Below are positions 2,433 to 59,450 of a stretch of 64,000 nucleotides of DNA, piece by piece. The position numbers and the translations under genes were made by a program. The notes beneath the pieces are model-generated. The model searched no databases. It was not told where the DNA came from and saw only the letters and a program-made list of their open reading frames with translations. This DNA is from Bacillales bacterium UBA2450 (lineage in GTDB: Bacteria; Bacillota_I; Bacilli_A; RFN20; CAG-826): NCBI GenBank assembly GCA_002342545.1, contig DDQE01000036.1, forward strand, positions 1,183 through 65,182, read 5' to 3'. Position 1 is the stretch's first letter, and the number at the start of each line of letters is the position of its first letter.

Positions 2433-5009
2433 ATGGGCGAAAAAAAGAAATTCCAAATAAATTCCAAACTAGAAAACATGATCAAAGGTTTGACCCTTTG
2501 TTTGATTTCTATCATTTTGATTTTAAATGTTGGTAAAGTTGCTCGTACTTTCGCTTTTGTTCCTTTATATCTATTTGGAGCATCTTATTATATTTTATTT
2601 GCTTTAGTATTCTTATATGGCTTATTCAGAATTATTTTTAGAAGAAAAATTAAACTAAAGGAAGCGAATATCATTTTCTCTGTTCCTTTATTTTTCTTAT
2701 CGATGTTTTTCTTTTTAAGCGTTTATGACACTCCTTCATTTGATAGTGTTGGGAATGCGATTAATTCTTATCACGCCTCTTTAAATGGATATTACACGCC
2801 AGTGTTTTTTAATCCATTTAATTATTATGGTGGATTTAAACATGGTCTACTTGGTCTATCTTTAGGTGCCGGAATTAATAATAACACTGTAGCGATATTC
2901 TTAGGAATCATGCTATTAGTTGTTTCTTTATTAATCTTCTTTATGCCTTTAATTATCTCATGGATCAAAAATGACAAAAAGAAAGAAAAACCATTAAAAC
3001 TAATTCAGGAAGAGGAAAAAGAAGAAAAAGAAGTTGTGGCTATAAAAGAAGAAGAGCCGGCTCCTTCTTTAATTGCTCCTGAACCAGTTGAAGTTAAAAG
3101 AGGATTTGAAAGCGATCAAAGTCCATTCATTAATCAAAATAGTGGTTTCTCTAAGCCAACAATGTCTTTAGATGATAGTCATATGAGCGTTCACTCTCAA
3201 TCTGATTCTCGTGAATTTACTCCTTTAGTGTTCTCTAGACAAAGAAAAGTTGAAGTTATGAGCGCACCTATTAGTGAGCCTATTTCTACTAAAGTAGAAA
3301 TTGAACCAATTCAAGAAGAAACCTTAGAAGAACAGGTGGAAGTAGAGAACTTAATTGAAACTAGACCAGAAGTCGTTAATGAAGTAATCGAAGAAAAACC
3401 GCAAATTGATGAATCTTTAGTAAGAGCTCAACCAATTTTCTTAAACGAAGTTGAAAAAGAAGTAGCTCCTATAGAAAAGCCTCTTCCAATTATTGAAGAA
3501 CCTAAGAAAAAAGAACCAATTAACTGGGTTCCACCTTCTACTGATTTATTAATGACTTATGAAAATGACGATGCGAACGAATTAAATAATCAAGTCGCCG
3601 CAAATAGAGTAGAGGCCATTAACAATATTTTAGCTAACTTTAGAGTTGGAGCACATTGTACTGGCTATAAGATTGGTCCTAGCGTTACTCGTTATAACAT
3701 TGAATATGAACCAAACGTCACTATGAAATCTGTAGAGAAATTAGTAAGTGATATCTCTATGAGATTAGGTGGAGTAAGAACTAGATTTACTCCAATTGTC
3801 AGTGGAGAATCCTTCTCTGGCTTAGAAGCTCCTAACGCGAAAATCACTACAGTTAGTTTTAAAGAAGTGGTTGAAGCTCTTCCTGATGCCAAAAAACATC
3901 CCTTATCGGTTGGCTTTGGTAAGAATTTATCTGGCACAGTGATTTACGCTGATTTTAATAAATTTCCACATATTTTAGTTGCTGGTACCACTGGAAGTGG
4001 TAAATCTATTTTCATTCACTCGATTATCGCTTCTTTAATTATGAGAGCCTCACCTGATTTACTTAGAATCGTTTTAGTCGATCCAAAGATGGTGGAAATG
4101 TCTAAATATAAAGACATGCCTCATTTATTATGTCCAATTATTACTGAACCAGATAAAGCTAAAGTAATGCTTACTAAATTAGTCGATGAAATGAATCACC
4201 GTTATCAAATCTTTGCGGAAAACGGTATGGTTAGTGAAATTGACCAATATAACGAATGGGCTAGTGAAAACGGAAAAGAATTAATGCCGTTCATCGTTGT
4301 TGTTTTAGATGAATACGCTGATTTAGTGGATCGCTGTAAAGATATTGGTCTACCAGTAGTTTCTATTGCTCAAAAAGCTCGTGCTTGTGGAATTCATTTA
4401 TTAATTTCCACTCAAAGACCATCCACAAATATTATTACTGGTGTTATTAAAGGTAATTTACCAACTCACGTTGCTTTAAGAACTGCAAGCTATACTGACT
4501 CTATGACTATTATCGGAGAAGGTGGAGCAGAGCAGTTATTAGGTAAAGGCGATATGTTAGTGGAATCTCCAGTTGTATCTACTGAAGAAAAAGTAAGATT
4601 ACAAGGCTGCTTTGTACAAAATAAAGAAATACTTCGCGTTGTCGCCTATTTAAAAGAACATTATGAAACTAATTATGATCCTAACTTCTTAGATTTAGTG
4701 GATCATTCTAAAGAAGCAGGTAAACAATTAGTGGCTTCTGGAGAAGTACAAAAAGAGGCTGATGAAGCCGAAGAAATGAAGTATCAATCCGTTAAGGATT
4801 GGGTTTTAACTCAAAAATTTGTCTCGATGAGTAAGATTCAAAGAGAATGTATGGTGGGCTTTAATAGAGCTGGTAAATTCTTTAAACGTTTACAAATGGA
4901 AGGAATTGTTTCTACAGAAGTAGACGGCAACACCAAAGGATGCGCAGTTATTGGTGCCCCTAGCGATGATAATGAATATATTCCTAGTAGTGAGGAACTA
5001 ATTGGTTAA
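2433..5009 (+). CDS. ftsK: DNA translocase FtsK/SpoIIIE
   Basis: N-terminal TM helices, an E/P/V-rich linker, Walker A GTTGSGKS, a VVLDEYADL Walker B-like motif and a C-terminal gamma wHTH. Start moved to ATG 2433 (MGEKKK), which lies 7 nt after TATAAT at 2420-2425. Confidence 0.85.
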   Translation: MGEKKKFQINSKLENMIKGLTLCLISIILILNVGKVARTFAFVPLYLFGASYYILFALVFLYGLFRIIFRRKIKLKEANIIFSVPLFFLSMFFFLSVYDTPSFDSVGNAINSYHASLNGYYTPVFFNPFNYYGGFKHGLLGLSLGAGINNNTVAIFLGIMLLVVSLLIFFMPLIISWIKNDKKKEKPLKLIQEEEKEEKEVVAIKEEEPAPSLIAPEPVEVKRGFESDQSPFINQNSGFSKPTMSLDDSHMSVHSQSDSREFTPLVFSRQRKVEVMSAPISEPISTKVEIEPIQEETLEEQVEVENLIETRPEVVNEVIEEKPQIDESLVRAQPIFLNEVEKEVAPIEKPLPIIEEPKKKEPINWVPPSTDLLMTYENDDANELNNQVAANRVEAINNILANFRVGAHCTGYKIGPSVTRYNIEYEPNVTMKSVEKLVSDISMRLGGVRTRFTPIVSGESFSGLEAPNAKITTVSFKEVVEALPDAKKHPLSVGFGKNLSGTVIYADFNKFPHILVAGTTGSGKSIFIHSIIASLIMRASPDLLRIVLVDPKMVEMSKYKDMPHLLCPIITEPDKAKVMLTKLVDEMNHRYQIFAENGMVSEIDQYNEWASENGKELMPFIVVVLDEYADLVDRCKDIGLPVVSIAQKARACGIHLLISTQRPSTNIITGVIKGNLPTHVALRTASYTDSMTIIGEGGAEQLLGKGDMLVESPVVSTEEKVRLQGCFVQNKEILRVVAYLKEHYETNYDPNFLDLVDHSKEAGKQLVASGEVQKEADEAEEMKYQSVKDWVLTQKFVSMSKIQRECMVGFNRAGKFFKRLQMEGIVSTEVDGNTKGCAVIGAPSDDNEYIPSSEELIG

Positions 5010-5011
5010 TT

Positions 5012-7078
5012 ATGGATTATGGTTTAATAAACGCTGAACTCATTAATAAAAATAGTTTAGCAATCTTATATTATGGAGAATCTAGTGACATTAATGATAT
5101 TAATTTCAAATTAGAAGTTAATGGCACTAGCTATCCTTTAAGAATTAATAGATTTTCTAGAAGTGATAAATTATTTAGAATTGAAGCTAGTAGTGACGTT
5201 GATATTATTTTAGGTAACGTTAATAACGTTAAAACTAATGTTGGTGATGAAATTAGCTTAGATTATCGTAGCTACGTTACTAGTAAAGAATTTGATGAAC
5301 TATATTGTCCAATTGATGAAGAATTTGGAGCATTCTATTTTAAAGAAGAAACAGTCTTTAAATTCTGGAGTCCAATTAGTGATAAAGTGTTCCTAAAATT
5401 AGAAAAAAGCGATAATAACTTTGTTCTTTTACCAATGAAAAGAAAAGAAAAAGGTGTTTATAAATTAACGGTTAAAGGTGACCTATTTAACAAAAAGTAT
5501 AACTATGTTATATATCAAAGTGGCACTAGTAAAGAAATTAGAGATCCATATGGTATAGGAACTTCCTTAAATTCTAAATATTCTGCGGTTATTGATTTAT
5601 CCGCTTTAAATGTCATTGCTAAAGAAAAACCTAAATCTATTATTAATAAAGCTAACGAGGCTATTATTTATGAAATGGATATTAGAGACTTTACCGAAGC
5701 AGACAAGAACAATGAAAGTGCTGGAAAATATCTAGGTGTTTTAAATAAGATTGACTATTTAAAGAATTTAGGAGTCACTCACGTTCAACTTCTTCCAGTT
5801 CATGATTTCTTTGGAGTGGATGATATTGAAGTTGACCATTATAACTGGGGATATAATCCAACTAGCTATTTCTCTTTAGAAGGAAGTTATTCTAATTATC
5901 CAGAAGATCCTTTAGCGAGATTATTAGAATTTAAAAAGTTAGTTGCCGAATTACATAAAAATGATATAAGAGTTATTCTTGATGTGGTTTACAACCACAT
6001 TTACGAATATCAAAATAGTGATTTCCATAAGAATTTACCAAATTATTACTTTAGAAGACTTGGCAAAAAAATCTCTGAAGGTAGTGGATGTGGTAACGAT
6101 ATTGCTAGCGAAAGAAGCATGGTCAGAAAGCATATTTTAGATTCCTTAAAATATTTCACTGAAACATTTGATTTAGATGGATATCGTTTTGATTTACTTG
6201 GCTTAATTGATTTAGAAACTGCTAAAGAGGCTATTAAGGTTGTGAAATCTATTAAACCTGACGCTTTGATGTATGGAGAAGGTTGGGATATGATGACTGG
6301 CTTATCTAAAGATAAGAAGTGTTGTAGCGATAACGCGCATCAAATTCCAGAGATGGGATTCTTTAATGATCAATTCCGTGATGTCATTAAAGGTGGGACC
6401 TTTGATAAATATTCCAAAGGCTTCATCATGAATGAATTTTATAAAGATGATTTAAACAATGTTTTATGTGCTTGCTTATTAAAGAATCGATATGATAATG
6501 CGTCTCAATCTATTAACTATGTTGAGTGTCATGATAATCAAACTTTATTTGATAAAATTTCTTACTTCTCCGATAACGATGAACTTAACCTTCAAAGAGT
6601 TAAATTTGCTAATGCCATGACTTTACTTTCTGTTGGCGTTCCATTTATCCATATGGGCCAAGAAATTGGCTTATCAAAATGTATGCTTGATAATACTTAT
6701 AACGTTCCAAAAGTGAATAATATGGACTGGGATTTAGTGGAATCGCGTCATGAAATGGTCAAATTTATGAAAGAGTTAATTAAAGTCAGAAAAACTCTTC
6801 CGTTATTTAAAGCTAATTCCGCTAGCGAGTTAGAAAATGTTTATATTGATTATTTAGATAATGGGCTAGTAACTATTACCGTTACTGAAGAAAAATTATT
6901 ATTACCTGGCTTTAAAGAAGGCTTAATTATCATCAATCCAAGCGAGGAAGTAAAAACTTTAGAATTAAAAGATTATTATCAAGTATTCTTTGGCTGTAAC
7001 GGCATTGTAGAAGATGAATCCTATGCTAAAAATTTCACTTCTGCAGATTTATCGGTATCTATTTTAGGATTAAAATAA
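5012..7078 (+). CDS. pulA: Type I pullulanase / debranching enzyme (GH13), with no signal peptide
   Basis: GH13 motifs DVVYNH, GYRFDLLG, GEGWD and ECHDN, plus the pullulanase YNWGYNP motif. Confidence 0.8.
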   Translation: MDYGLINAELINKNSLAILYYGESSDINDINFKLEVNGTSYPLRINRFSRSDKLFRIEASSDVDIILGNVNNVKTNVGDEISLDYRSYVTSKEFDELYCPIDEEFGAFYFKEETVFKFWSPISDKVFLKLEKSDNNFVLLPMKRKEKGVYKLTVKGDLFNKKYNYVIYQSGTSKEIRDPYGIGTSLNSKYSAVIDLSALNVIAKEKPKSIINKANEAIIYEMDIRDFTEADKNNESAGKYLGVLNKIDYLKNLGVTHVQLLPVHDFFGVDDIEVDHYNWGYNPTSYFSLEGSYSNYPEDPLARLLEFKKLVAELHKNDIRVILDVVYNHIYEYQNSDFHKNLPNYYFRRLGKKISEGSGCGNDIASERSMVRKHILDSLKYFTETFDLDGYRFDLLGLIDLETAKEAIKVVKSIKPDALMYGEGWDMMTGLSKDKKCCSDNAHQIPEMGFFNDQFRDVIKGGTFDKYSKGFIMNEFYKDDLNNVLCACLLKNRYDNASQSINYVECHDNQTLFDKISYFSDNDELNLQRVKFANAMTLLSVGVPFIHMGQEIGLSKCMLDNTYNVPKVNNMDWDLVESRHEMVKFMKELIKVRKTLPLFKANSASELENVYIDYLDNGLVTITVTEEKLLLPGFKEGLIIINPSEEVKTLELKDYYQVFFGCNGIVEDESYAKNFTSADLSVSILGLK

Positions 7079-7863
7079 TGTGGCATATTTTAAGAGCAGT
7101 TTTATTATCATCAATTAGAATTATCTGTGGATATTTTTCTTGGATGATTTCTTATTCAAGAAAAAACTGCAAAACTCCAATTGAAAAAAGATATAAAAAA
7201 GCTAGAAAACTTATTTTAAAAGTTAATCACAATTTAAAGCTTGATGTTTTAGTAGAAGGAAAAGAAAATATTCCAGAAGAAACATGTTGTTTTTATTCAA
7301 ACCACATGGGAGCGGCAGACCCATTACTCTATTTTGCTGCTTTAGATAAGCCAACTACATTTGTTGCTAAAAAAGAAGTTAAAAACTTACCTTTTGTTGG
7401 TAAAGTCTTTAAAGCGATCAACGGACAATTTTTGGATCGAGCTGATTTAAAACAGTCTTTACGAGTGATGATGAAGGTTCAAGAATCCTTAGCTAAAAAG
7501 GAAATTAACTGGGTTATTTTCCCAGAAGGAAAAAGAACTAAAGACCATATGGAAAATATACTTCCTTTCCATCACGGCACTTTTAGGGCCGCTATGAAGG
7601 CTAAAGTTCCTCTAGTTCCTACTGTGGTATTTGGTAGCTTTAGAATTTTACATACAAAACATAATTTCAAAAGATATCCTACATATATTAAATTTTTAAA
7701 GCCAATTTATCCTAGTGAATATGAAGGAAAATCTACTGAAGAAATCGCAAAAGAAATTCAATCAAGAGTGCAAGCAGAATTAACTTTTGAAACAAGAAAA
7801 ATCGACCACAAGAGAATGGTCGAACTTCATGATAAGTATTATCGATTCAATCGAATCTATTAA
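7078..7863 (+). CDS. plsC: 1-acyl-sn-glycerol-3-phosphate acyltransferase
   Basis: NHMGAAD (HX4D) and FPEGKRT motifs. Confidence 0.8.
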   Translation: MWHILRAVLLSSIRIICGYFSWMISYSRKNCKTPIEKRYKKARKLILKVNHNLKLDVLVEGKENIPEETCCFYSNHMGAADPLLYFAALDKPTTFVAKKEVKNLPFVGKVFKAINGQFLDRADLKQSLRVMMKVQESLAKKEINWVIFPEGKRTKDHMENILPFHHGTFRAAMKAKVPLVPTVVFGSFRILHTKHNFKRYPTYIKFLKPIYPSEYEGKSTEEIAKEIQSRVQAELTFETRKIDHKRMVELHDKYYRFNRIY

Positions 7864-9125
7864 AATTTCTTTCTTAATCCCTTTGGATAATAATTTTTGA
7901 TTACTTGACCGTCAGTTTTAGCAATATCAACTGCGGTCTTTTTATACGTTAATAAAACGTAACCCTTATATGGATTAATTTTATTTAACTGTTCACCATA
8001 TAAATATTTCTTTAATTCTTCTAAAGTAAGTTCGATTATATCGAAACTATCTTTAGCGTAGCTTCTAGCGTAGTGAAGGTCATATTTAAAGATATCTTTT
8101 TTAAATTCGCCAACTTTCACTCCATATCTATAGATATTAAAGCCTTTTATATCTAGTCCGTTATTAACCGCAAATAAATAATCGTTTACTCTTTTAACGT
8201 CTTTATCTCCTTTTACTAATTGAGGGAATTTATTTATATGATTAAATTCGTTAATTTTAGAAGAACCTGGTTTTTTAAATTGGACGATATATTGACCTTC
8301 TCCTGAAAAATGAGACGGCATTAATCTAATTCCGATATCTTTAATATAAAAGCATTTATCTGAAGGTATATTAACTAGTTCAGCGTCGCTATTTTCTAAT
8401 AAATAATGAGCGACATCTTCATCTTCTTCTTTGGAGTAGCTACAAGTGGAATAAGATAATGTGCCTCCTGGTTTAAGCATATAATAGGCAATTAGAATTA
8501 ATTCTTTTTGAATTTCTTGATATTTATAAACTTTGTTTATACTCCAATCATTTATCATGGTGTCACTTTTTCTAAACATTCCGCTACCAGAACAAGGCGC
8601 ATCTAAAACGATCTTATCGAAGGTATTTTCATATTTAAGATAAGTCTTACTTAAATCATTATTAGTGATAATTACATTACCAATTCCTAGTCTTTCTAGA
8701 TTGTTACTAAGTAAGCCACATCTAGAAAAAGATAAATCATTAGAAATAATTAATCCTTTATCATTCATCTTAAAAGATGCTTGAATAGACTTTCCTCCAG
8801 GAGCAGCACACATATCAAGAACTAAATCGTCTTCTTTAAAATCAATTAAAGAAGAAACAACCATCGCACTTGGTTCTTGTAAGTAATAATAGCCAAGCTC
8901 ATGATAAATATGTTTTCCAAGTTCATAGGTTTCTTTATCGTAAATAAAAGCATGCTTCACAATTGGATGGGGCTTTACTAATGGGAATTCTTTTAAAAAT
9001 TCTTCATCACTAATTTTATTAGTGTTTAATAAAACTGCATGTTCACTTTTTTTACTTAAAGAATTAAGCAATAAATCTGCTTCGCTATCTCCAATTGAAT
9101 TAATTAAATGCTCTTTAAAAGTCAT
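7860..9125 (-). CDS. RsmB/RsmF-family rRNA cytosine-C5 methyltransferase (NOL1/NOP2/Sun)
   Basis: DMCAAPGGKS SAM motif and DAPCSGSGMFRK catalytic Cys motif. Start set to ATG 9125 (MTFKEHL), 6 nt downstream of TATAAT on the minus strand. Confidence 0.75.
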   Translation of the reverse strand: MTFKEHLINSIGDSEADLLLNSLSKKSEHAVLLNTNKISDEEFLKEFPLVKPHPIVKHAFIYDKETYELGKHIYHELGYYYLQEPSAMVVSSLIDFKEDDLVLDMCAAPGGKSIQASFKMNDKGLIISNDLSFSRCGLLSNNLERLGIGNVIITNNDLSKTYLKYENTFDKIVLDAPCSGSGMFRKSDTMINDWSINKVYKYQEIQKELILIAYYMLKPGGTLSYSTCSYSKEEDEDVAHYLLENSDAELVNIPSDKCFYIKDIGIRLMPSHFSGEGQYIVQFKKPGSSKINEFNHINKFPQLVKGDKDVKRVNDYLFAVNNGLDIKGFNIYRYGVKVGEFKKDIFKYDLHYARSYAKDSFDIIELTLEELKKYLYGEQLNKINPYKGYVLLTYKKTAVDIAKTDGQVIKNYYPKGLRKKF

Positions 9126-9217
9126 GCTGTTATTATAAAGTAGAGCAATATATATTTCAAAAATAAATGTATATAAATACATTATTTGTGATAACATATT
9201 AACGAGGTATATAACAT

Positions 9218-10531
9218 ATGAGAATGGTAGATTTAATCATTAAAAAAAGAGATGGTCATGAATTAACTGACGAAGAAATTAAGTTCTGGATTGATGGCTA
9301 CGTAAAAGGAGAAATTCCTGATTATCAATCTAGTGCGATGAATATGGCTATTTTCTTTAAAGGAATGACTAAAAGAGAAATTGCCACTTTAACTGACTAT
9401 ATGGAACATAGTGGTGAAGTTATTGATTTAAGTGAAATCGAAGGTATTAAAGTTGATAAACACTCTACAGGTGGAGTTGGTGATAAAACTTCTTTAGTTT
9501 TAGGACCAATGGTTGCCGCAGTAGGTGGAAAAGTCGCTAAAATGTCTGGTCGTGGATTAGGCCATACTGGTGGTACACTTGATAAATTAGAATCTATCCC
9601 AGGATTAATTATTGCTAAAAGCAAAGAACAAATGGTGGAGCAAGTTAATCGTATTGGCTTAGCTATTGTTGGTCAAACCAGCACCTTAGTTCCTGCTGAT
9701 AAAAAGTTATACGCTCTTAGAGATGTTACCGGAACTGTCGAGTCTATCCCATTAATCGCTGCTAGTGTCATGTCTAAAAAACTCGCTAGTGGAACCGATG
9801 TTATCCTTTTAGACGTCACTGTTGGTGAAGGAGCATTCATGAAAAACATGGATCAAGCTAGAGAACTAGCTAAAACCATGGTCGGTATTGGTAAGTCTTT
9901 AAATAGAGACACAGTCGCGGTATTAAGTGATATGAGTGAGCCATTAGGATTTGCCGTAGGCAACTCCTTAGAAGTTAAAGAGGCTATTGATTCTTTACAC
10001 GGTAAAGGACCAAAAGATTTAATGGAATTATGCTATACCTCTGGTAGTATCATGCTTGTTCAAGCAAAAGTCTGTAAGAGCATTGAAGAAGCCCGTAAGA
10101 AACTCCATGAAGTTATTGAAAATGGAGAAGCTTTTGAAAAATTCTGCTTAATGGTAGAAGCTCAAGGTGGAGATGTTAGTTATATTAGACATCCTGAAAA
10201 ATTTGAAATTAGCAAAAATATTGTTGAAATTAGATCTGAAAGAGATGGCTATATCAAAGAAATTAACGCTTTAGAGATTGGAATTAGCGCGATGAAACTC
10301 GGCGCTGGTAGAGAAACTCTTGAAGATGTCATTGATATGTCTGCTGGTATCGTATTAGCGAAAAAAGTTGGCGCTAAAGTTACTAGAGGCGACTTATTAT
10401 GCACTGTTTATACAAATAAAACCCCAGAAGAATATCTTCCAGTTTTAGATGAAATTAGACAAGCATATGCCTATAGCGATAAAGAAGTTAAAGAACTTCC
10501 AGTTATTAGAGAAATTATTAGAGAAGCTTAA
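9218..10531 (+). CDS. pdp: Pyrimidine-nucleoside phosphorylase
   Basis: MRMVDLIIKKRDG N-terminus and the KHSTGGVGDK motif. Confidence 0.9.
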   Translation: MRMVDLIIKKRDGHELTDEEIKFWIDGYVKGEIPDYQSSAMNMAIFFKGMTKREIATLTDYMEHSGEVIDLSEIEGIKVDKHSTGGVGDKTSLVLGPMVAAVGGKVAKMSGRGLGHTGGTLDKLESIPGLIIAKSKEQMVEQVNRIGLAIVGQTSTLVPADKKLYALRDVTGTVESIPLIAASVMSKKLASGTDVILLDVTVGEGAFMKNMDQARELAKTMVGIGKSLNRDTVAVLSDMSEPLGFAVGNSLEVKEAIDSLHGKGPKDLMELCYTSGSIMLVQAKVCKSIEEARKKLHEVIENGEAFEKFCLMVEAQGGDVSYIRHPEKFEISKNIVEIRSERDGYIKEINALEIGISAMKLGAGRETLEDVIDMSAGIVLAKKVGAKVTRGDLLCTVYTNKTPEEYLPVLDEIRQAYAYSDKEVKELPVIREIIREA

Positions 10532-20572: not shown

Positions 20573-21016
20573 ATGGAACAATATATGTGGATTATCTGGC
20601 TATCATTATTCGTTTTGATGATTATTATTGAAGCAAGTGGGCCAGCATTAATCTCAATTTGGTTTGCTTTTGGAGCATTAATATCATTAATCGTTTCAGT
20701 TATTCCTGGAGCGCCTTGGTGGTCAGAATTAATTATCTTTATCGTGATATCTATCTCCACCTTATTAGCGTTAAGACCAATATTTAAGAAGTATCTTAAA
20801 CGGAACACTGTTAGAACTAATATTGATAGCTTTATTGGTAAAAAAGGATATGTAATTGAAGATATTTCATTTCTTCGCCCAGGAGCTATTAAAATTGGAG
20901 ATATTAGTTGGACTGCGATACCAGCAAACGAAAAAGAAACAATCAAGGAAGATGAAATAGTTGAAGTAGTCTCCTTAAACGGAAACAAAGTTATTGTTAA
21001 GAAAGTCGAGGATTAA
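20573..21016 (+). CDS. NfeD-family membrane protein
   Basis: N-terminal TM helices plus a C-terminal OB-like domain, immediately upstream of the SPFH gene. AGGAGG lies 10 nt upstream. TTG 20567 is an alternative start. Confidence 0.7.
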   Translation: MEQYMWIIWLSLFVLMIIIEASGPALISIWFAFGALISLIVSVIPGAPWWSELIIFIVISISTLLALRPIFKKYLKRNTVRTNIDSFIGKKGYVIEDISFLRPGAIKIGDISWTAIPANEKETIKEDEIVEVVSLNGNKVIVKKVED

Positions 21017-21019
21017 AAT

Positions 21020-21946
21020 ATGATTGCGTTAATTGTTATCTTATCTATCTTAGGAGCGATTTTATTAATTGTTATTCTCAGCTCCATTAAAATTGTCAAA
21101 CAAACAGAAAAAGTGATCGTTGAAAGATTAGGTGCATATCGTACCACTTGGAATGTGGGTATTCATATGTTACTTCCATTTTTTGATCGTGTAGCGTTGC
21201 GTGTTTCAATGAAGGAACAAGTTAAGGATTTTGAACCACAATCAGTTATTACAAAAGATAATGTTACAATGGAAATTGATACGGTTGTCTTCTTTGTAGT
21301 TACAGATGCAAAATTATATGCTTATGGTGTAGAAGATCCTCTTAGTGCTATTAGTTATTTAAGTGCTACAACATTAAGAAACATTATTGGAGAACTTGCC
21401 CTTGATGAATGTTTGACTTCTAGAGAAATCATTAATGAAAAAATGAGAAAGATTCTTGATGAAGCAACTGATCCTTGGGGTATTAAAGTTAATCGTGTTG
21501 AAGTTAAAAATATTCTTCCACCAAAAGATATACGCGAAGCAATGGAAAAGCAAATGCGTGCTGAACGTGAAAAAAGAGAAAAAATACTTCTTGCTGAAGG
21601 TGAAAAACAATCCGCTATTTTAGTGGCTGAAGGCGAAAAACAATCTGCAATTTTAAAAGCTGAAGCTGATAAACAAATGACGATTCTACGTGCTGAGGGT
21701 GAAGCTGAAAGTTTAAGACAAGTCAAACAAGCTGAAGCAGACTCCATTAAAATGGTCAAACAAGCTGAAGCAGAAGGCTTGAAACTAATTAACGAATCTA
21801 AACCAAGTCAAGAAGCTTTACAACTAAGATACTACGAAGCCTTAACCAAAGTTGCAGACGGACAATCTACAAAAATCTTCCTACCAAGTGACGGACTAAA
21901 GATTGGTTCAATTGCTTCTATTGCTAAAGAAGTAAGTAAAGATTAA
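21020..21946 (+). CDS. SPFH/band-7 (stomatin/prohibitin-like) protein
   Basis: N-terminal TM helix, an SPFH core and an A/E/K-rich coiled coil with duplicated AEGEKQSAIL. Confidence 0.85.
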   Translation: MIALIVILSILGAILLIVILSSIKIVKQTEKVIVERLGAYRTTWNVGIHMLLPFFDRVALRVSMKEQVKDFEPQSVITKDNVTMEIDTVVFFVVTDAKLYAYGVEDPLSAISYLSATTLRNIIGELALDECLTSREIINEKMRKILDEATDPWGIKVNRVEVKNILPPKDIREAMEKQMRAEREKREKILLAEGEKQSAILVAEGEKQSAILKAEADKQMTILRAEGEAESLRQVKQAEADSIKMVKQAEAEGLKLINESKPSQEALQLRYYEALTKVADGQSTKIFLPSDGLKIGSIASIAKEVSKD

Positions 21947-29837: not shown

Positions 29838-29884
29838 AAAATTTTTTTGCAAAAAAATCGCAAAACCTCCCTCTTTATATAATG
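29838..29884 (+). promoter_or_regulatory. 47-bp promoter module with perfect palindrome TTTTTTTGCAAAAAAA (29842-29857) and TATAAT (29878-29883), upstream of comEA-comEC
   Basis: 42 of 47 positions are identical to 50364-50410. The palindrome centre is about 40 nt upstream of the predicted TSS. Confidence 0.6.
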
Positions 29885-29902
29885 AAGGAGGTTTTTAATT
29901 TT

Positions 29903-30433
29903 ATGTTTAAAATCCTGATTGGGGTCGTAGTTGTGACAATCGCCGTCATTGCCGCATTTGTGATGATCGACCCAAAGTCGCAAATTCAGTCTGCTGGGAC
30001 AGTTACTGAGGTTGCGAATACCTTTACCGTTGCTATTGAAGGTGAGGTTTATAAGACTGGCAATTTTACAATGAAAGATGGTAGCACTATGCTCGATTTA
30101 ATTGAGACTGCTGGTGGTACAACTGTTAATGCTGATTCTAGAGCGTATTATGATGAAGCCCTTTTAACTAAAGGCATGACTTACTATATTGCCTCTAGAT
30201 ATGATACTAGTGATGTTTGTAGTGCTAGTGAAGTTAGTAAAGTGAATATCAATATTGATGATGCTGAAACTTTAGCTACAGTAAGTGGTATTACTTCCAC
30301 AATTGCTAATTCCATTATTACTTATCGAGAGACTAATGGAATATTTGCTACTTTAGAAGAGCTAATGGAAGTATACGGCATTGGTAATGCTACTTATCGT
30401 AAGATCCGTAACTATGTAATTCTTCACGCGTGA
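29903..30433 (+). CDS. comEA: Competence protein ComEA (SLBB plus helix-hairpin-helix DNA receptor)
   Basis: N-terminal TM helix and a C-terminal HhH region (ATVSGITSTIANSIITYRETNGIFATLEELMEVYGIGNATYRKI). Start at ATG 29903 after AGGAGG; the track start at 29882 lies in the -10 box. Confidence 0.8.
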   Translation: MFKILIGVVVVTIAVIAAFVMIDPKSQIQSAGTVTEVANTFTVAIEGEVYKTGNFTMKDGSTMLDLIETAGGTTVNADSRAYYDEALLTKGMTYYIASRYDTSDVCSASEVSKVNINIDDAETLATVSGITSTIANSIITYRETNGIFATLEELMEVYGIGNATYRKIRNYVILHA

Positions 30434-32433
30434 GTTTATTAGTTCTATTTGTTCTTCTATATCTTGGTATTAATGTTCGAGTATCAATAATTCTAGGAGT
30501 CATAGAACTAGTAATTGTTCTTGCTTTTGCCTTTTATCGCTTCGGTAAGAAAGTATTTATTGCTGGGATGATATCTTGCCTCATTGGTGTTGGTTTGTCC
30601 TTTATAAGGCCTAATTTCAATAAGAGCGAATATAGCGGAATAGTGGAAGAAGTTAAAGAAAACTATTTCATCTTTAATTCCACTTTTGAAAAACTTTATG
30701 TTTATCAAAGAGAACATTCTTTTGAAATAGGGGATATCTTATCGATAAAAGGTAGTAAAGTTCCTTTGGATTTTGAGATTTTAGAATCAAACTTCAATTT
30801 CCAAAAATACCTCAATAATAAAGGGGTATATTCCCAGATGTATCCCACATCAATTGAGGTTAAATTTAGAAACCCAATTAGAGTCTTATCTTTTAAAAAG
30901 GAATTTCTTTCTCATTTTTCTAGTAATTCTAAAGCTTTAATTGGCTCATTTCTTTTCTCTATGGGAAGTGATGAAGATGTCTATAGTGAGATGAGATCGC
31001 TTCATTTAAATCGTCTATTATCTAATAGCGGATTTTATTTAACGATTTTATATTCATTTTTAGCGTTTTGTGTTTCTAGATTCATTAAAAAAGACAAATA
31101 TAAAGACTTAGTACTTATAGGGCTATTCTTACCTACTTTTATCTTGTCTTATCCACGGTTTGTGGTCATTAAATTTGTCTTTTTAAAACTCTTAAGGTGG
31201 ATCAATAATCATTTATTAAAAAAGAAGTTTTCTTATTTAGAATTAGTCTCCTTTTCTGGAATATTCTTTTTAATTATTAATCCGTTTTACGCTTATCAAG
31301 ATGGATTCTTGTTAACTTATCTAATCCCCATTAGCGCTTTTTTCTTTCAGAATTCCTTCAAAGGATATAAACCCTTTCAAAAGAAACTACTCATTAGTGG
31401 ATTGATTCTAATAGAGTTTATTCCTTTTGCCTTAGCTTTTTACCAAGAGATCTCCATAGTTTCTATTATTTATCACATTATTTTATCTCCGTTTTTTGTT
31501 TTATATTATTTTCTTTCCTTATTATCTATTACCCATATTCCGATATATGGGATAGTTAATGGTTATGGAGATTTCTTATCTCAGGCGATATCTTTCTTTT
31601 CTAAATATAACCTCACAATATATGGAATAGAAATGAGTAATTTAACGATTCTTTTATTTGAAGTTCTATTCTTTATTGTCGTTTATTTTTTATCTAGTCG
31701 CTTTAAGCCAATGATCTACGCTTCTAGTGGGCTATTATTAATTCTTAATCTATTTTATTTTATTCCTCTAAATAGTTTATTTAATGACCAAGTATTTTTT
31801 ATCAATGTAGGTCAAGGAGATGCGACATTAATTAGAAGAAAAGATACCGCTATTTTAATTGATACCGGTGGACATAAAAGTATTAATATGGCAAAAGAAA
31901 CATTGATTCCGTTTTTTAAAAAGAATCAGATTTACGATATTGATTTATTAATTACCACTCATGATGACTTCGACCATTCTGGAGCGGTTAATTCTTTAAT
32001 TGAGAATTTTACAGTGAAACGTTACGAAAAAGATTATAAATCTTTTCCTATTAGTATAGGAGGATTTAATTTGACTAATTATAATATCTATCCTGAATTA
32101 TGGAATGAAGAAAACGATCGTTCGTTAGTGATTGGATTTAACACTAAAGAATATCATTATCTCATTATGGGTGATGCTCCTAAAAAGATTGAATCTAGGA
32201 TAATGAAAGATAATGTTTCTATTCCTTGTGACATTTTAAAGGTGGGACACCATGGGTCAAACACTTCTAGCGGTGACGCTTTTATTAAATATCTTTCTCC
32301 AAAAGTTGGAGTGATATCGTGTGGAAAAAAGAATAAATACGGACATCCTCATAGTGAAGTAGTAGCGATTTTAAATAAATATAAAGTCCGAATTCGAAGA
32401 ACTGATTTAGAAGGAACAATAACTTATTACTAG
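30430..32433 (+). CDS. comEC: DNA internalisation channel ComEC/Rec2
   Basis: Polytopic competence domain plus a C-terminal MBL domain (VGQGDATLI, THDDFDHSG, VGHHGS). Confidence 0.85.
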   Translation: MSLLVLFVLLYLGINVRVSIILGVIELVIVLAFAFYRFGKKVFIAGMISCLIGVGLSFIRPNFNKSEYSGIVEEVKENYFIFNSTFEKLYVYQREHSFEIGDILSIKGSKVPLDFEILESNFNFQKYLNNKGVYSQMYPTSIEVKFRNPIRVLSFKKEFLSHFSSNSKALIGSFLFSMGSDEDVYSEMRSLHLNRLLSNSGFYLTILYSFLAFCVSRFIKKDKYKDLVLIGLFLPTFILSYPRFVVIKFVFLKLLRWINNHLLKKKFSYLELVSFSGIFFLIINPFYAYQDGFLLTYLIPISAFFFQNSFKGYKPFQKKLLISGLILIEFIPFALAFYQEISIVSIIYHIILSPFFVLYYFLSLLSITHIPIYGIVNGYGDFLSQAISFFSKYNLTIYGIEMSNLTILLFEVLFFIVVYFLSSRFKPMIYASSGLLLILNLFYFIPLNSLFNDQVFFINVGQGDATLIRRKDTAILIDTGGHKSINMAKETLIPFFKKNQIYDIDLLITTHDDFDHSGAVNSLIENFTVKRYEKDYKSFPISIGGFNLTNYNIYPELWNEENDRSLVIGFNTKEYHYLIMGDAPKKIESRIMKDNVSIPCDILKVGHHGSNTSSGDAFIKYLSPKVGVISCGKKNKYGHPHSEVVAILNKYKVRIRRTDLEGTITYY

Positions 32434-50325: not shown

Positions 50326-50350
50326 GACCCTTTGGGTCTTTTCTTTTTTT
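50324..50350 (+). terminator. Rho-independent terminator of the dnaK operon
   Basis: AAGACCC-ttt-GGGTCTT followed by a T-run. Confidence 0.8.
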
Positions 50351-50363
50351 GAGACACCTTTTT

Positions 50364-50410
50364 AAAATTTTTTTGCAAAAAAATCGCATTTTTTCCCTCT
50401 TTATATAATG
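50364..50410 (+). promoter_or_regulatory. Second copy of the 47-bp T7GCA7-palindrome promoter module
   Basis: AAAATTTTTTTGCAAAAAAATCGCA-N6-CCCTCTTTATATAATG. It is identical to 29838-29884 except for 5 nt in the central hexamer. Confidence 0.6.
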
Positions 50411-50438
50411 TAGGGACATTCTCTACAAAGGAGGAAAA

Positions 50439-51656
50439 ATGTACTTCATATCCCAAGTCGGCCAACATGATTGTGCCTTTGCTTGTCTAAAGATGTTATT
50501 GGCCAATTATCATCATGACAAGAATTATTTATTTTTGCAGTGCGAGGATAAGCCATATAGTTTTATGGACTTAAAGAAAATCGCAGCCACGTATCATATG
50601 GATGTATCAGGCGTCCGAGTAGAAGGATCTAAAGAGCTTGAGAATAATAAGCAATATCCTTTTATTGTCACATTAGAGAAAAAGAAAGGAGTGAAACATA
50701 GCGTTCTCGTTCTAGGAATGAGCCGGAAATACGTAAAAATATACGATCCGGAAACTGGCAAAAGGAAAATCCTTTCTGAAATCTTTTATGGTCAATGGGA
50801 CCGTAAAGCTTTAATAGTCAATAAAGAAAAAGGCTACCAAAAGTTTAAATGTGATGTGCAAATCAATGATTTCATTGATAAGAAAGATAAAATCACCATC
50901 CCATTATGGCAAATTATTAGTTCCATATCTTTAGCGGTGGGAATGTATTTTATTAACGCTAATTCATATTTCTTTCTCCCAATTATCTTTTTAGCGTTAT
51001 TCATTATCTTTGAATTGATGTTTAGAAAAAATTTGATTTCCGCGATGCAAAGGATGGATGACAACATTTTCAACTACAAGATCAAAGCAGAAAAGAAAGA
51101 GTTTTACGATTTCTTTAAAGTGATGGAAAAATATCGTTATGTCTCTTTAACGATTATTCCGAACTTACTTTATGTAGTTTTAATTTCTGTGTTTGTCACT
51201 ATGGTGTTAGTGATGAATAGCACAATAAATATAATTTATGTTTTGCTTTCTTTATTACTCGCTTTCATCCATGTTTATATTTATCTCCCATATCAAAAAA
51301 ATAAATATGATGAAGCAATTGAAAAAGAAGCAGAAGTTAAAGAAGTGGAAAATCAATTTCAATTTCGTTCAGTAATTAACACCGCTCATGAGAGCGCTTA
51401 TAAGCTAGGTTTGTTTAAAAATGCCTTAACTTATATTGAAATTGCGGTTTTACTGATGAGTATTATCACGGTGATGGCAGTGTCACACATTGTGAACATT
51501 ACCTATGTTATTTTCTATTTATGCATATCTGTTTATCTAAAAGATAATTTCATTCGTCTAATGCAATATTCAGATAGCAGTGAAGATTATAATAATCAAT
51601 TGGCCAAATTACTTCATTATATCGATTTGTCGATTAAAAATAATCCCGTGGATTGA
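50439..51656 (+). CDS. C39 peptidase-domain membrane protein lacking an ABC ATPase domain
   Basis: N-terminus QVGQHDCAFACLKML (catalytic Cys) with later KHSVLVLG...KIYDP (His/Asp), followed by 4-6 TM helices. There is no Walker motif. Confidence 0.65.
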   Translation: MYFISQVGQHDCAFACLKMLLANYHHDKNYLFLQCEDKPYSFMDLKKIAATYHMDVSGVRVEGSKELENNKQYPFIVTLEKKKGVKHSVLVLGMSRKYVKIYDPETGKRKILSEIFYGQWDRKALIVNKEKGYQKFKCDVQINDFIDKKDKITIPLWQIISSISLAVGMYFINANSYFFLPIIFLALFIIFELMFRKNLISAMQRMDDNIFNYKIKAEKKEFYDFFKVMEKYRYVSLTIIPNLLYVVLISVFVTMVLVMNSTINIIYVLLSLLLAFIHVYIYLPYQKNKYDEAIEKEAEVKEVENQFQFRSVINTAHESAYKLGLFKNALTYIEIAVLLMSIITVMAVSHIVNITYVIFYLCISVYLKDNFIRLMQYSDSSEDYNNQLAKLLHYIDLSIKNNPVD

Positions 51657-57489: not shown

Positions 57490-58791
57490 ATGGGAAGACC
57501 AAAAAAAGTGGCTGAAGAGCCAAAGAAAGCAACTGCTAAAAAAGAAGCTAAACCTGCAAAGGCTAAGTCCGGTGCTGCTAGTGGTTCTAAGAAAAGAAAC
57601 ACCAAAACTTTAACCACATTAGCGGAAATTGAAAGCAAGCTTCTAAAAAAAGCAAAAAACAATGGGGATTGTATTGATCAAGATGAAATCTATGATGCAT
57701 TATCGCAATACGAACTTGACGATGATGTAATTGAGGATTTAATTAAATACTTCGCTGATCATGACATTGAAGTTTTATCTTCTGATGAAGATGAAGATGA
57801 AGATCTTGATGCTGAAGAAGATGAAGAATTTGATGAAAGTAAAATGTCTTTAGAAGACGATGAAGACGATTATTATGACAGCGATGAGACTGATGAAAGC
57901 GAAGAAATAGATTTTGATATCGATCATTTCGACACATCAGTTGGCAGCGACGTTAAAGTAAATGATTCAGTTAAGATTTATCTTAAAGAGATTGGTAAAT
58001 TTGATCTTTTAAAACCTGAAGAAGAACCAATTCTTGCTGCTAAAATCTTAGAAGGTGATGAAGAAGCCAAGCAAAGATTAATTAACGCTAACTTGAGATT
58101 GGTTGTTAATATTGCTAAACATTATGTTGGACGTGGTATGTTGTTCTTGGATTTAATTCAAGAAGGTAACCTTGGTTTAATGAAAGCTGTTGATAAATTT
58201 GACTATACTAAAGGTTTTAAATTTTCAACTTATGCGACATGGTGGATTAAACAAGCTATTGCTAGAGCAATTGCTGATCAGGCACGTACCATTCGAATTC
58301 CTGTTCATATGGTCGAAACAATCAATAAAATGACCAAAGTCCAGAGACAATTAGTCCAAGACTTAGATAGAGATCCAACTGCTGAAGAAATTTCTGAAGC
58401 GATGGGTGGAGAACTTACTCCAAAAAGAATTAGAGAGATTCAAAGAATTGCCCTTGAACCAGTTTCATTTGAAACCCCAATCGGCGAAGAGGATGATTCT
58501 CATTTAATTGATTTTATCGAAGATAAAGATAATGAATCTCCTGTTGAATATACAACAAAAAGACTTCTTAAGGAAGAACTTGACTCTATTCTTACGGAAT
58601 TAACAGATAGAGAAGAAAGAGTTTTAAGACTTAGATATGGTCTAGATGACAATCGTCCTAGAACTCTAGAAGAAGTTGGAAAAGAATTTGGCGTTACTCG
58701 TGAACGTATTCGTCAAATCGAAGCTAAGGCTATTAAGAAATTAAAGCATCCAACAAGACGTAAAAAATTAGGAGACTATCGTAGCTCATAA
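57490..58791 (+). CDS. sigA: Primary sigma factor with a long acidic region 1
   Basis: Region 2 reads [36 protein letters not shown] and region 4 reads [23 protein letters not shown]. Confidence 0.96.
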
Positions 58792-59450
58792 TGAAATTAT
58801 CAAAAAGATTACAAGCCATTTATGATATGGTTCCTAACGGTGTCGTCGCTGACATTGGTAGTGACCATGGGAAATTAATAATTTCCTTATTTCAAAATGG
58901 CATTATCTCTAAAGGATACGCTATAGAAAATAAAAAGGGTCCATATTCCAGATTAGTGAAAGCAATTGAAGATAGTGGATGTTCTGATTCTATTGTTCCA
59001 ATGTTTTCCGACGGAATAAGTGAATTACCAAGTGACGTTGACACAATTGTTATCGCAGGAATGGGAGGTTTCAATATAATTGAAATTTTAAAAGCTCATC
59101 CATTAAAACTTAAAAATGTTAGAACAATTATTGTTGATGCTCACAATTCCATTCCAGAGATGAGAAAACAAATTTGCTATATGGGTTACATCATTGCTGA
59201 TGAAGATATAGTCAATGATGGTGGAAAATATTACGAAATCATCAAATTTATTGCTGGAGAGTGTGCTTATCTAGATAATAATGATTTTGAATTTGGACCA
59301 GTTCTAAGAAAAGAAAAATCATTAACTTTTAAAGAAAAATATCAATCTAGAATTGCCGAAATTGATAATTTATTATCAACAAAGAAACTATCTGGCGATA
59401 GAATTCTAGACCTTGATAAAGAAAAAGAAAGAATTAGAAGAGTACTATGA
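58791..59450 (+). CDS. trmK: tRNA (adenine22-N1)-methyltransferase
   Basis: LSKRLQAIYDMV...ADIGSDHG N-terminus, in the conserved position after sigA. Confidence 0.85.
   Translation: MKLSKRLQAIYDMVPNGVVADIGSDHGKLIISLFQNGIISKGYAIENKKGPYSRLVKAIEDSGCSDSIVPMFSDGISELPSDVDTIVIAGMGGFNIIEILKAHPLKLKNVRTIIVDAHNSIPEMRKQICYMGYIIADEDIVNDGGKYYEIIKFIAGECAYLDNNDFEFGPVLRKEKSLTFKEKYQSRIAEIDNLLSTKKLSGDRILDLDKEKERIRRVL

Follow-up and report, generated by a model that had tools for sequence, protein, structure and literature searches.

A lineage-specific promoter box of a putative competence regulon in rumen Bacilli and its candidate SigH-like reader

In the late competence regulon of streptococci, a short ComX/SigX-dependent promoter element, the cin-box (com-box), stands before comEA/comEC, comFA/comFC, dprA, recA, radC, genes for the pilus and accessory genes of the killing or bacteriocin type (PMC5167698, PMC9300618), and a small, fast-evolving alternative sigma factor is the driver. 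Competence promoters that depend on SigH occur in non-sporulating Bacilli (Staphylococcus aureus, Latilactobacillus sakei and Listeria monocytogenes), and the SigH layout is a 9-mer followed after 11-12 nucleotides (nt) by a 7-mer (PMC4754846). In Mycoplasma genitalium and M. pneumoniae, sigma-20 (MG428) reads a private sigma-70-type promoter whose -35 element differs between the sister species (TTGTCA vs TTGGCR). These promoters have a spacer of 18-19 nt and lie a short distance from the start codons, and their regulon comprises recA, small proteins without an assigned function and MG_390 (PMC4446450, PMC6105099). MG_390 has been called an ATP-binding cassette (ABC) transporter, and its loss cuts recombination-dependent transformation tenfold (PMC4446450). 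Here we describe a putative competence promoter, a box of about 55 nt that occurs twice in a 64,000-nt stretch (the window; positions 1,183 to 65,182 of contig DDQE01000036.1, forward strand) of the genome of Bacillales bacterium UBA2450 (GCA_002342545.1), once before comEA-comEC and once before a C39-peptidase gene. In the literature that we searched we found no competence sigma factor or box described for this lineage.

The source genome (G000) is a 1.335-Mb assembly with 32.8% G+C and 97% completeness, and the window belongs to its contig C52. Its near relatives are rumen metagenome-assembled genomes labelled 'uncultured Erysipelotrichaceae', 'Bacillales' or 'Bacilli'. A preliminary description of the window had pointed to a 47-bp module at 29838-29884 that recurs at 50364-50410. 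The two copies are identical at 42 of 47 positions, with all five differences confined to one hexamer, and read AAAATTTTTTTGCAAAAAAATCGCA, then AAACCT or TTTTTT, then CCCTCTTTATATAATG; the genes downstream are as that description said, comEA-comEC and a gene with a C39 domain. Both contain a perfect 16-bp palindrome, TTTTTTTGCAAAAAAA (T7GCA7). Its TTGCAA lies 25 nt upstream of a TATAAT, and the hexamer at 17 nt is AAATCG, so that no TTGACA-like -35 element is found there. With up to three mismatches, chance predicts 0.04 occurrences of the 21-mer T7GCA7TCGCA in the window; it was found at two places, a third match being the reverse reading of one of them. Genome-wide, T7GCA7 is expected between 0.008 (base composition) and 0.04 times (first-order Markov) and was observed 10 times.

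Pattern and position weight matrix scans of the 1.34-Mb genome located 13 near-identical and four variant copies of the box, all 17 of them intergenic and each oriented toward a gene. The near-identical copies are about 90% identical over about 50 nt, their consensus is AAAYTTTTTTTGCAAAAAAATCGAAAAAAWCCACTCTTTATATAATGTAGGGAC, and TATAAT is perfect in all 13. Throughout, positions are numbered from the G directly after TATAAT (after the invariant T) as +1. Per-position conservation spans about -46 to +8, giving a box of about 55 nt of which the 47-bp module is the core.

The copies stand before recA, dprA-topA, comEA-comEC-holA, a YhcG/DUF1016 nuclease gene with comFA-comFC 1.7 kb further downstream, the gene of a 60-amino-acid (aa) peptide together with radC, and an operon for a VirB11/TadA-like ATPase, TadB/C-like membrane proteins and a 75-aa pilin-like protein. 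Further copies precede two more yhcG nuclease genes, the C39-peptidase gene, the gene of an ABC protein and two small genes (135 aa and 121 aa) without a family match, and the remaining five precede leaders of two families, tox1 and tox2. Family matches behind the boxes comprise RecA, DprA, RadC, ComFA-like helicase, ComFC phosphoribosyltransferase, ComEA, ComEC, T2SSE/VirB11-like ATPase, YhcG_C/DUF1016 and Peptidase_C39. The genome-wide motif search for which the preliminary description had called therefore places the box before dprA, recA, the peptide gene with radC, the pilus ATPase operon and comEA/comEC, as well as before the yhcG gene 1.7 kb upstream of comFA/comFC, and the proposal of a dedicated regulatory box for competence is borne out by the canonical transformation gene set behind the copies. 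Since the target genes form this set, the box is very probably a lineage-specific promoter of a natural-competence regulon.

Like the cin-box, the box precedes genes for DNA uptake, recombination and a pilus along with accessory killing-type genes, it has an upstream T-rich tract and, in most copies, a CGAA core, and its candidate driver is a small, fast-evolving sigma factor. Unlike the cin-box, it is about 55 nt long and conserved throughout, its top positions are C-13 and C-11 within CNCTCT, and the pilus behind it is Tad/VirB11-like and not ComG-like. The cin-box forms TACGAATA, YTACGAAYW and TTNCGAATAA match none of the 17 box regions, and the two window copies read TCGCA. The likeness to SigH promoters lies in the candidate sigma gene, which occupies the SigH locus after cysS-rlmB, and in an A-run with TCG followed about 10-11 nt later by CNCTCTT, which recalls the spaced 9-mer and 7-mer of SigH. 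The upstream block contacting sigma region 4 may be either the A-run with TCG or TTGCAA. The SigH consensus RMAGGRWWW-N11-12-RRMGAAW has no match in the 17 box regions and 17 matches genome-wide.

The resemblance to the sigma-20 system is one of geometry and gene content. Here TTGCAA, TTCACA or TTAGCA lies 18-19 nt upstream of CTCTTT, a similar arrangement with a different sequence. Boxes precede recA and the C39 gene, and the C39 protein best matches the mycoplasma Mbov_0121 family; MG_390 presumably carries a C39 peptidase domain as well and is, we assume, related to the C39 protein of the window. In contrast to the sigma-20 regulon, the regulon here includes full DNA-uptake machinery (comEA/comEC, comF, dprA, pilus), which is absent from M. 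genitalium, the TTGTCA-promoter consensus is missing, and the C39 protein lacks an ABC ATPase. The consensus TTGTCA/TTGGCR-N18/19-ATTWAT/ATTYAT occurs in none of the 17 box regions, and none of them contains a K-box pair (AAAA-N5-TTTT). The remark of the preliminary description that the box resembles neither the ComX box nor a ComK box pair is borne out, and the SigH consensus does not fit either. The system behaves like the ComX, SigH and sigma-20 regulons, yet it fails each sequence-based promoter test for them. The features in the window are listed in Table 1.

Table 1. Features of the two box-bearing loci, in window coordinates.
Feature	Position	Strand	Remarks
Competence box before comEA-comEC	29838..29891	+	-46 to +8 relative to the predicted start G 29884; one of the 13 near-identical copies
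T7GCA7 palindrome, comEA copy	29842..29857		TTGCAA 29847-29852 at -37..-32, candidate -35-like element
TCG, comEA copy	29858..29860	+	-26..-24, preceded by A-run; upstream block most widely common to the genus
CCCTCT, comEA copy	29869..29874	+	-15..-10; most informative box positions; proposed -10-like element of an alternative sigma factor
TATAAT, comEA copy	29878..29883	+	-6..-1; A+T-rich stretch with invariant final T
Predicted transcription start G, comEA copy	29884	+	placed by positional homology with other box copies, whose helices begin at G
comEA	29903..30433	+	Pfam HHH_3/SLBB
comEC	30430..32433	+	Pfam Competence/Lactamase_B
Intrinsic terminator of gene upstream of C39 box	50326..50351	+	GACCC-TTT-GGGTC then T-run; kept in relatives; predicted to insulate the C39 box
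Competence box before C39-peptidase gene	50364..50417	+	T7GCA7 50368-50383, TCG 50384-50386, CCCTCT 50395-50400, TATAAT 50404-50409, predicted start G 50410
5'-terminal C39 leader hairpin	50409..50427	+	UGUAGGGA (50409-50416) / UCUCUACA (50420-50427); RNAfold -8.1 kcal/mol; Shine-Dalgarno GGAGG 50430-50434
C39-peptidase gene (405 aa)	50439..51656	+	Peptidase_C39 (PF03412) N-terminal, E 1.6e-20; membrane region; no ABC ATPase

The RNA leaders behind the boxes bear on where transcription starts. The peptide gene has a leader of 70-140 nt, whose minimum-energy fold pairs nucleotide 1 (the G) with a segment just 5' of the Shine-Dalgarno sequence in 18 of 19 species. With a further 28 nt of upstream sequence in the fold, nucleotides 1-6 all still pair downstream, and not with the upstream arm, in 17 of the 19. 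The first eight pairs of the helix are 97% paired over 13 distinct sequences, a value that none of 500 shuffles reaches and that compares with 38-81% in slid registers, the partner segment having been picked from the predicted fold. Four positions show compensatory changes, for instance GAGAGGGG/CCCCTCTC, GTGGGGGG/CCCCCCAC and GAGGGGCC/GGCCCCTC. The C39 leader also opens with a hairpin (Table 1), and a distant ortholog has GAGG/CCUC in the same position, a compensatory change. Leaders of C39 orthologs begin their helix at the G in the own clade and in one further congener (G022), and 2-3 nt further in in three others (G005, G007, G014). Pairing by hand gives helices from the same G in the tox1 (GUAGGGACUU/AAGUUUCUAU) and tox2 (GUAGGG/UUCUAC) leaders.

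In dprA, recA, comEA and yhcG the purine run after TATAAT is the only Shine-Dalgarno sequence, 5-10 nt before the start codon in about 20 species. The 19-nt leader of comEA, GAAGGAGGUUUUUAAUUUU, holds it as GGAGG at 29887-29891. The preliminary description had taken TATAAT as a -10 element with a start about 7 nt downstream. Because the G after TATAAT is paired in covarying RNA helices, it would be transcribed, and TATAAT cannot then be the -10 element of that RNA; the sole Shine-Dalgarno sequence of the short-leader genes occupies the same bases, and on this indirect evidence the original assignment is not supported. Several mutually unrelated helices start at the G itself or no more than a few nt away, which suggests it as the 5' end, and 5'-terminal helices are typical of stable Firmicute mRNAs. 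On balance these predicted folds tip slightly toward the G after TATAAT as the transcription start.

The box could then be read as follows. Transcription would start at the purine directly after the invariant T, CNCTCT(T) at -15..-9 would serve as the -10-like element, and the upstream contacts would be the A-run with TCG at -31..-24 and TTGCAA at -37..-32. TATAAT would be merely an A+T-rich stretch between the -10-like element and the start. The transcript would open with G(A/U)(A)GGG, used as the Shine-Dalgarno sequence in the short-leader genes (dprA, recA, comEA, yhcG) and as the base of the 5'-terminal helix in the long-leader genes. The most informative block is C-15, C-13, T-12, C-11 and T-10, with 2.4 bits each at C-13 and C-11, and its register is kept across the genus. 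With the revised start, TTGCAA comes to lie where a -35 element is normally found, with 18 nt between it and CTCTTT, and the puzzle of the missing -35 element raised by the preliminary description is removed.

Comparison with congeners shows which parts of the box are constrained. The exact T7GCA7TCG form occurs in the source genome and in only two of 22 congeners (3/23). Four sister species carry the non-palindromic TTTTTTCACAAATTTTCGAAAAA in the same position at 5-8 places each, and a fifth species (G010) carries TTTTTTAGCAAATTTTCGAAAAA at four places; both strands were scanned, and reversed-pattern controls gave zero. The position of TTGCAA is filled by TTCACA or TTAGCA in sister species. 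The upstream regions of dprA (22 genomes), recA (21), the peptide gene (20) and the C39 gene share an A-run with TCG, 6-8 variable bases, a C-rich block ending in CT(A/C)TT, an A+T stretch always ending in T, and a purine run, usually GAGG. The A+T stretch is TATAAT in the own clade only and elsewhere ATAAAT, AATAGT, TTAAGT, ATTTGT and similar. CT(A/C)TT at -13..-9 and TCG at -26..-24 hold register to the start G across most congeners, the fixed register of TCG having been read from the dprA and recA alignments of 21-22 congeners. The palindrome had previously been proposed as a class II activator site; it is clade-specific and is replaced by non-palindromic variants at the same position. Given an exact palindrome in 3/23 genomes and these sister variants, the sequences indicate a clade-specific accident of T-runs and A-runs around GC and no conserved dimer site.

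A candidate reader of the box is encoded in the same genome, in which two sigma-70-family genes were detected, rpoD and one for a 201-aa protein (contig C64, 19254-19859). The latter lies directly after cysS-rlmB, the genomic position of SigH. It scores 35.6 bits against TIGR02937 (cut-off 42.9) and 28 against NF006147 (cut-off 212) and stays below the cut-off of every SigH model; its best sub-threshold matches are nonetheless SigH models, and its best PDB match is sigma-H (3mzy, E 0.0012). With the Sigma70_r2 and r4_2 profiles alone only rpoD passes, and the SigH-like protein surfaced only with TIGR02937. No match to ComK (PF06338) was found in the 97%-complete genome.

The sigma factor diverges in parallel with the box. 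In the two congeners with an identical box it is 100% and 93% identical to that of the source genome, in the four sister species with the TTTTTTCACAAATTTTCGAAAAA variant 60-66%, in the species with TTTTTTAGCAAATTTTCGAAAAA 37%, and in the other congeners, whose boxes are more divergent, 26-32%, whereas RecA identity stays at 83-97% over the same species. The substitutions that separate the own clade from the sister clade are concentrated in the recognition helix of region 4 (KSYYQIRYK vs STYNKVRYR), and region 2.3/2.4 is nearly unchanged; in parallel, the upstream half of the box is rewritten and the downstream CTCTTTATATA is kept. The pattern is correlative and is what sigma/promoter co-evolution predicts. 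We infer that the box is probably read by this divergent SigH/ComX-family sigma factor, which would co-evolve quickly with it, and not by an ordinary sigma factor with an activator. Of the explanations considered, a lineage-specific competence promoter with its start at the G and a SigH-like sigma factor as reader is overall the best, and we hold it to be likely.

The C-rich block and the purine run of the box are complementary. Folding of 20 dprA upstream regions gave a hairpin of the two in every case (-6.4 to -13.3 kcal/mol). Cognate dprA arms pair with a mean of -9.3 kcal/mol vs -6.8 kcal/mol for arms swapped between species, and none of 2000 random pairings reaches the cognate mean. The comEA copy has a local inverted repeat, AAACCTCC (29863-29870) and GGAGGTTT (29887-29894), in which CCCTCT is also the anti-Shine-Dalgarno arm (local fold -10.6 kcal/mol). 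If transcription starts at the G, the C-rich arm would lie outside the box-driven transcript and, speculatively, would act as a lock on transcripts that read through from the neighbouring upstream gene. By eye, arm complementarity is weak in the recA copies, which would fit the lock idea because recA needs basal expression. Among 13 sites in the source genome, the lock showed no clear trend with the absence of an upstream terminator, and a link between the two remains speculation.

The candidate sigma gene (contig C64, 19254-19903, minus strand) follows rlmB after a gap of 44 nt, and a hairpin joins its Shine-Dalgarno GGGAG to a UCUCC further upstream. This hairpin co-varies in five congeners, as in GUACUCC/GGGAGUAU. 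In S. aureus an inverted repeat in the 5' untranslated region blocks translation of sigH (PMC3486894), and by analogy the hairpin looks like a similar translational lock.

Several observations weigh against a start at the G and a SigH-like reader. The anti-Shine-Dalgarno and Shine-Dalgarno arms of dprA, which flank the A+T stretch, co-vary, and this fits a transcribed hairpin at least as well. The placement of the start is modelled from RNA helices, and a processed longer primary transcript or an unpaired 5' tail would also be compatible with them. No described -10 element resembles CNCTCT, no published SigH, ComX or sigma-20 consensus fits the box, and C, not A, follows TCG in the two window copies. 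The sigma-box link appears as a correlation over few clades. In two gene families a 21-nt palindrome sits between the CCTC arm and the A+T stretch, where it would move everything upstream of it by two turns of the helix; a strict -35/-10 reading fails to explain this. Finally, four metatranscriptome-labelled public runs from related strains (95-99% identical), available as contigs only, break at the repeated box and have flat, DNA-like coverage in most cases, and no 5' ends were inferred from them. One long contig in the public runs passes straight through the recA box, and a search for the peptide-gene region in public runs yielded no informative RNA run.

The 21-nt palindrome has two forms. 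A nested palindrome GGAAAATAC-N3-GTATTTTCC belongs to a cassette named KilA-N-like by eye, which is nearly identical across distant congeners (L149-L155; G008, G001, G012, G003, G015), and three species have GGAATTAC-N3-GTAATTCC in their peptide-gene box (L125, L127, L134; G011, G016, G021). Both arms change together between species. As a dispersed operator the 21-nt palindrome was rejected: a pattern with 9-nt arms, which did not cover the shorter peptide-gene form, occurs about once per genome and always in the same KilA-N-like cassette.

The covarying dprA arms are accommodated at least as well by a ComX-style promoter further upstream, which we nevertheless regard as unlikely. The T-tract and (A)TCGAAAA would then act like the streptococcal T-rich tract and cin-box, transcription would start about 7 nt after TCGAAA at the C-rich arm, and a CCNCUC-AU loop-GAGG leader hairpin would hold the Shine-Dalgarno sequence. 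Such a leader would account for the hairpin in all 20 dprA upstream regions, for the better fit of cognate than of swapped arms and for the outer arms being left intact by the nested 21-nt palindrome, which would lie in the loop; TCGAA also has CGAA in common with the cin-box TTNCGAATAA. However, a -10 element at this place would be conserved, yet the bases that follow TCG vary within the genus, and there is no cin-box match. The G-rich arm of the peptide-gene leaders pairs downstream and not with the C-rich arm, and in the C39 and toxin leaders local helices at the 5' end can be formed from this G. On such a reading the most conserved positions, C-13 and C-11, would be left without a role in the peptide, C39 and toxin genes. 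The weak complementarity of the recA arms, judged by eye, points the same way.

The model of the preliminary description, a sigma-A promoter with TATAAT as -10 element, no -35 element, a dimeric activator on T7GCA7 and a start about 7 nt after TATAAT, draws on the perfect TATAAT in 13/13 main copies and on AAATCG exactly 17 nt upstream of it. The distance to the genes would also have a precedent, as M. genitalium sigma-20 promoters end 15-17 nt from start codons and the mapped MG_414 start lies 9 nt downstream of its promoter (PMC4446450). The helices and Shine-Dalgarno sequences described above argue against it: the 6-8 nt that follow TATAAT take part in covarying RNA helices and are hence in the transcript, and the same stretch is the only Shine-Dalgarno sequence of dprA, recA, comEA and yhcG in about 20 species. 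About half of the relatives lack A at the second position of the hexamer, the palindrome is clade-specific and swapped for non-palindromic variants, and a ComK gene was not found. We therefore consider this model improbable, more so than an upstream ComX-style start. A dispersed repeat or mobile promoter cassette spread by duplication, with no common dedicated regulator, could explain why about 90% identity over about 50 nt exceeds the need of most binding sites and why one box-bearing KilA-N-like cassette (by eye) is nearly identical across distant congeners, but it is very improbable given that the targets are the canonical transformation set, orthologs keep the box in the same place across the genus with its sequence changing in step within each species, the orientation to the downstream gene is always the same, and flanking repeats and transposase genes are absent.

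With a competence box before its gene, the C39 peptidase would be a regulon member. The gene is present in all 23 congeners, and the best NCBIfam match of the protein is the Mbov_0121-family peptidase-domain ABC transporter, in the N-terminal part only. The 60-aa peptide encoded upstream of radC (contig C34, 36619-36798, minus strand; MKYELLSDSEMEQQVSG|EALTLTAVMAVLATAIIAVIVYKMFLSDKGNATVPGGWKFSWN) has a leader that fits the double-glycine pattern (L-12, S-11, E-8, M-7, S-2, G-1; …SEMEQQVSG|E…) and a mature part with a highly conserved membrane helix and PGGWKFSWN. Within the genus the whole peptide is 60-100% identical, and across the order 38 of 41 genomes have a detectable copy. From these features it is a plausible candidate substrate of the orphan C39 peptidase, and in character it resembles a structural or membrane component and not a pheromone. 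The echo of peptide-pheromone control suggested in the preliminary description thus finds no backing: the C39 gene is a target of the box and as such does not speak for peptide signalling upstream, and the best candidate substrate is conserved, not a variable pheromone.

Taken together, these data allow a tentative and rather less probable picture, in which natural transformation in this uncultured rumen lineage is gated by a private, fast-drifting sigma-promoter code with about 15-20 promoters re-synchronised per species. Anti-Shine-Dalgarno locks would act on the sigma gene and on tightly controlled targets such as dprA, the 60-aa peptide would be co-expressed with the C39 peptidase and toxin-like mini-proteins, and the programme would share an ancestor with the mycoplasma sigma-20/MG_390 regulon. 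If so, the locks would let only transcripts begun inside the box, downstream of the lock, be translated. One sigma gene and about 17 promoters would also form a testable parts list for switching on transformation in uncultured or poorly tractable small-genome rumen and gut Bacilli. Forced expression of the sigH ortholog made S. aureus transformable (PMC3486894) and switched on competence genes in L. sakei (PMC3364868), and the same forced-sigma approach could open this lineage to genetics. Beyond this, the system would be an unusually clear case of sigma/promoter co-evolution, since within one genus, at RecA identities of at least 83%, the sigma factor falls to about 27% and the box is rewritten. 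The regulon would form a bridge from Firmicute competence to the recombination regulon that sigma-20 controls in mycoplasmas, and an orphan C39 peptidase would gain both a regulon and a candidate substrate.

Further observations concern individual members of the gene set. The second sigma-70-family gene, rpoD, lies within the window as a 438-aa open frame at 58066-59382 (C52:59248-59931 region). The box-preceded pilus operon (contig C14, about 4800-9464, minus strand) encodes a 99-aa protein, a 322-aa and a 127-aa protein without a family match, a 356-aa VirB11/TadA-like ATPase, two TadB/C-like membrane proteins and the 75-aa pilin-like MAMSEIKGQLLGIILTLMVFAAV…, and the transformation pilus seems to be Tad-like and not ComG-like.

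Four of the five tox leaders end in hydrophobic open reading frames (ORFs) of 24-28 aa that resemble type I toxins. These box-driven leaders of about 150 nt (C3, about 21000-21194, minus; C54, 25309-25560, plus; C7, about 8830-9028, minus; C37, about 8470-8668, minus) carry tiny ORFs such as MKEIIVALFEIIIILLIIKKDPPSDKR and METLLILFLLCLLASIIKGPNPKG, with a hairpin after each. The fifth (on C16), of tox2 type, is truncated and leads into a 172-aa basic protein. The mini-ORFs apparently belong to the competence regulon. In an Rfam scan of six box-bearing loci, the sole above-threshold match was an L21 leader downstream of radC, and the toxin-like leaders gave none.

On C54, the N-terminal zinc-finger part of comFA (about 1700-1960) is out of frame with the start codon downstream of its Shine-Dalgarno sequence (ATGCAATATAGAAAACTATAA…), which may reflect a frameshift, an assembly error or an unusual start. 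The three YhcG/DUF1016 PD-(D/E)xK nuclease genes (C9:7939-, C54:80+ and C56:175+) each have a competence box before them. The copy on C56 carries the sister-clade variant of the box (TTTTTTCACAAATTTTGAAAAAA) and is 89% identical to the sister species, vs 82.5% at the dprA locus, which is at most suggestive of a recent transfer.

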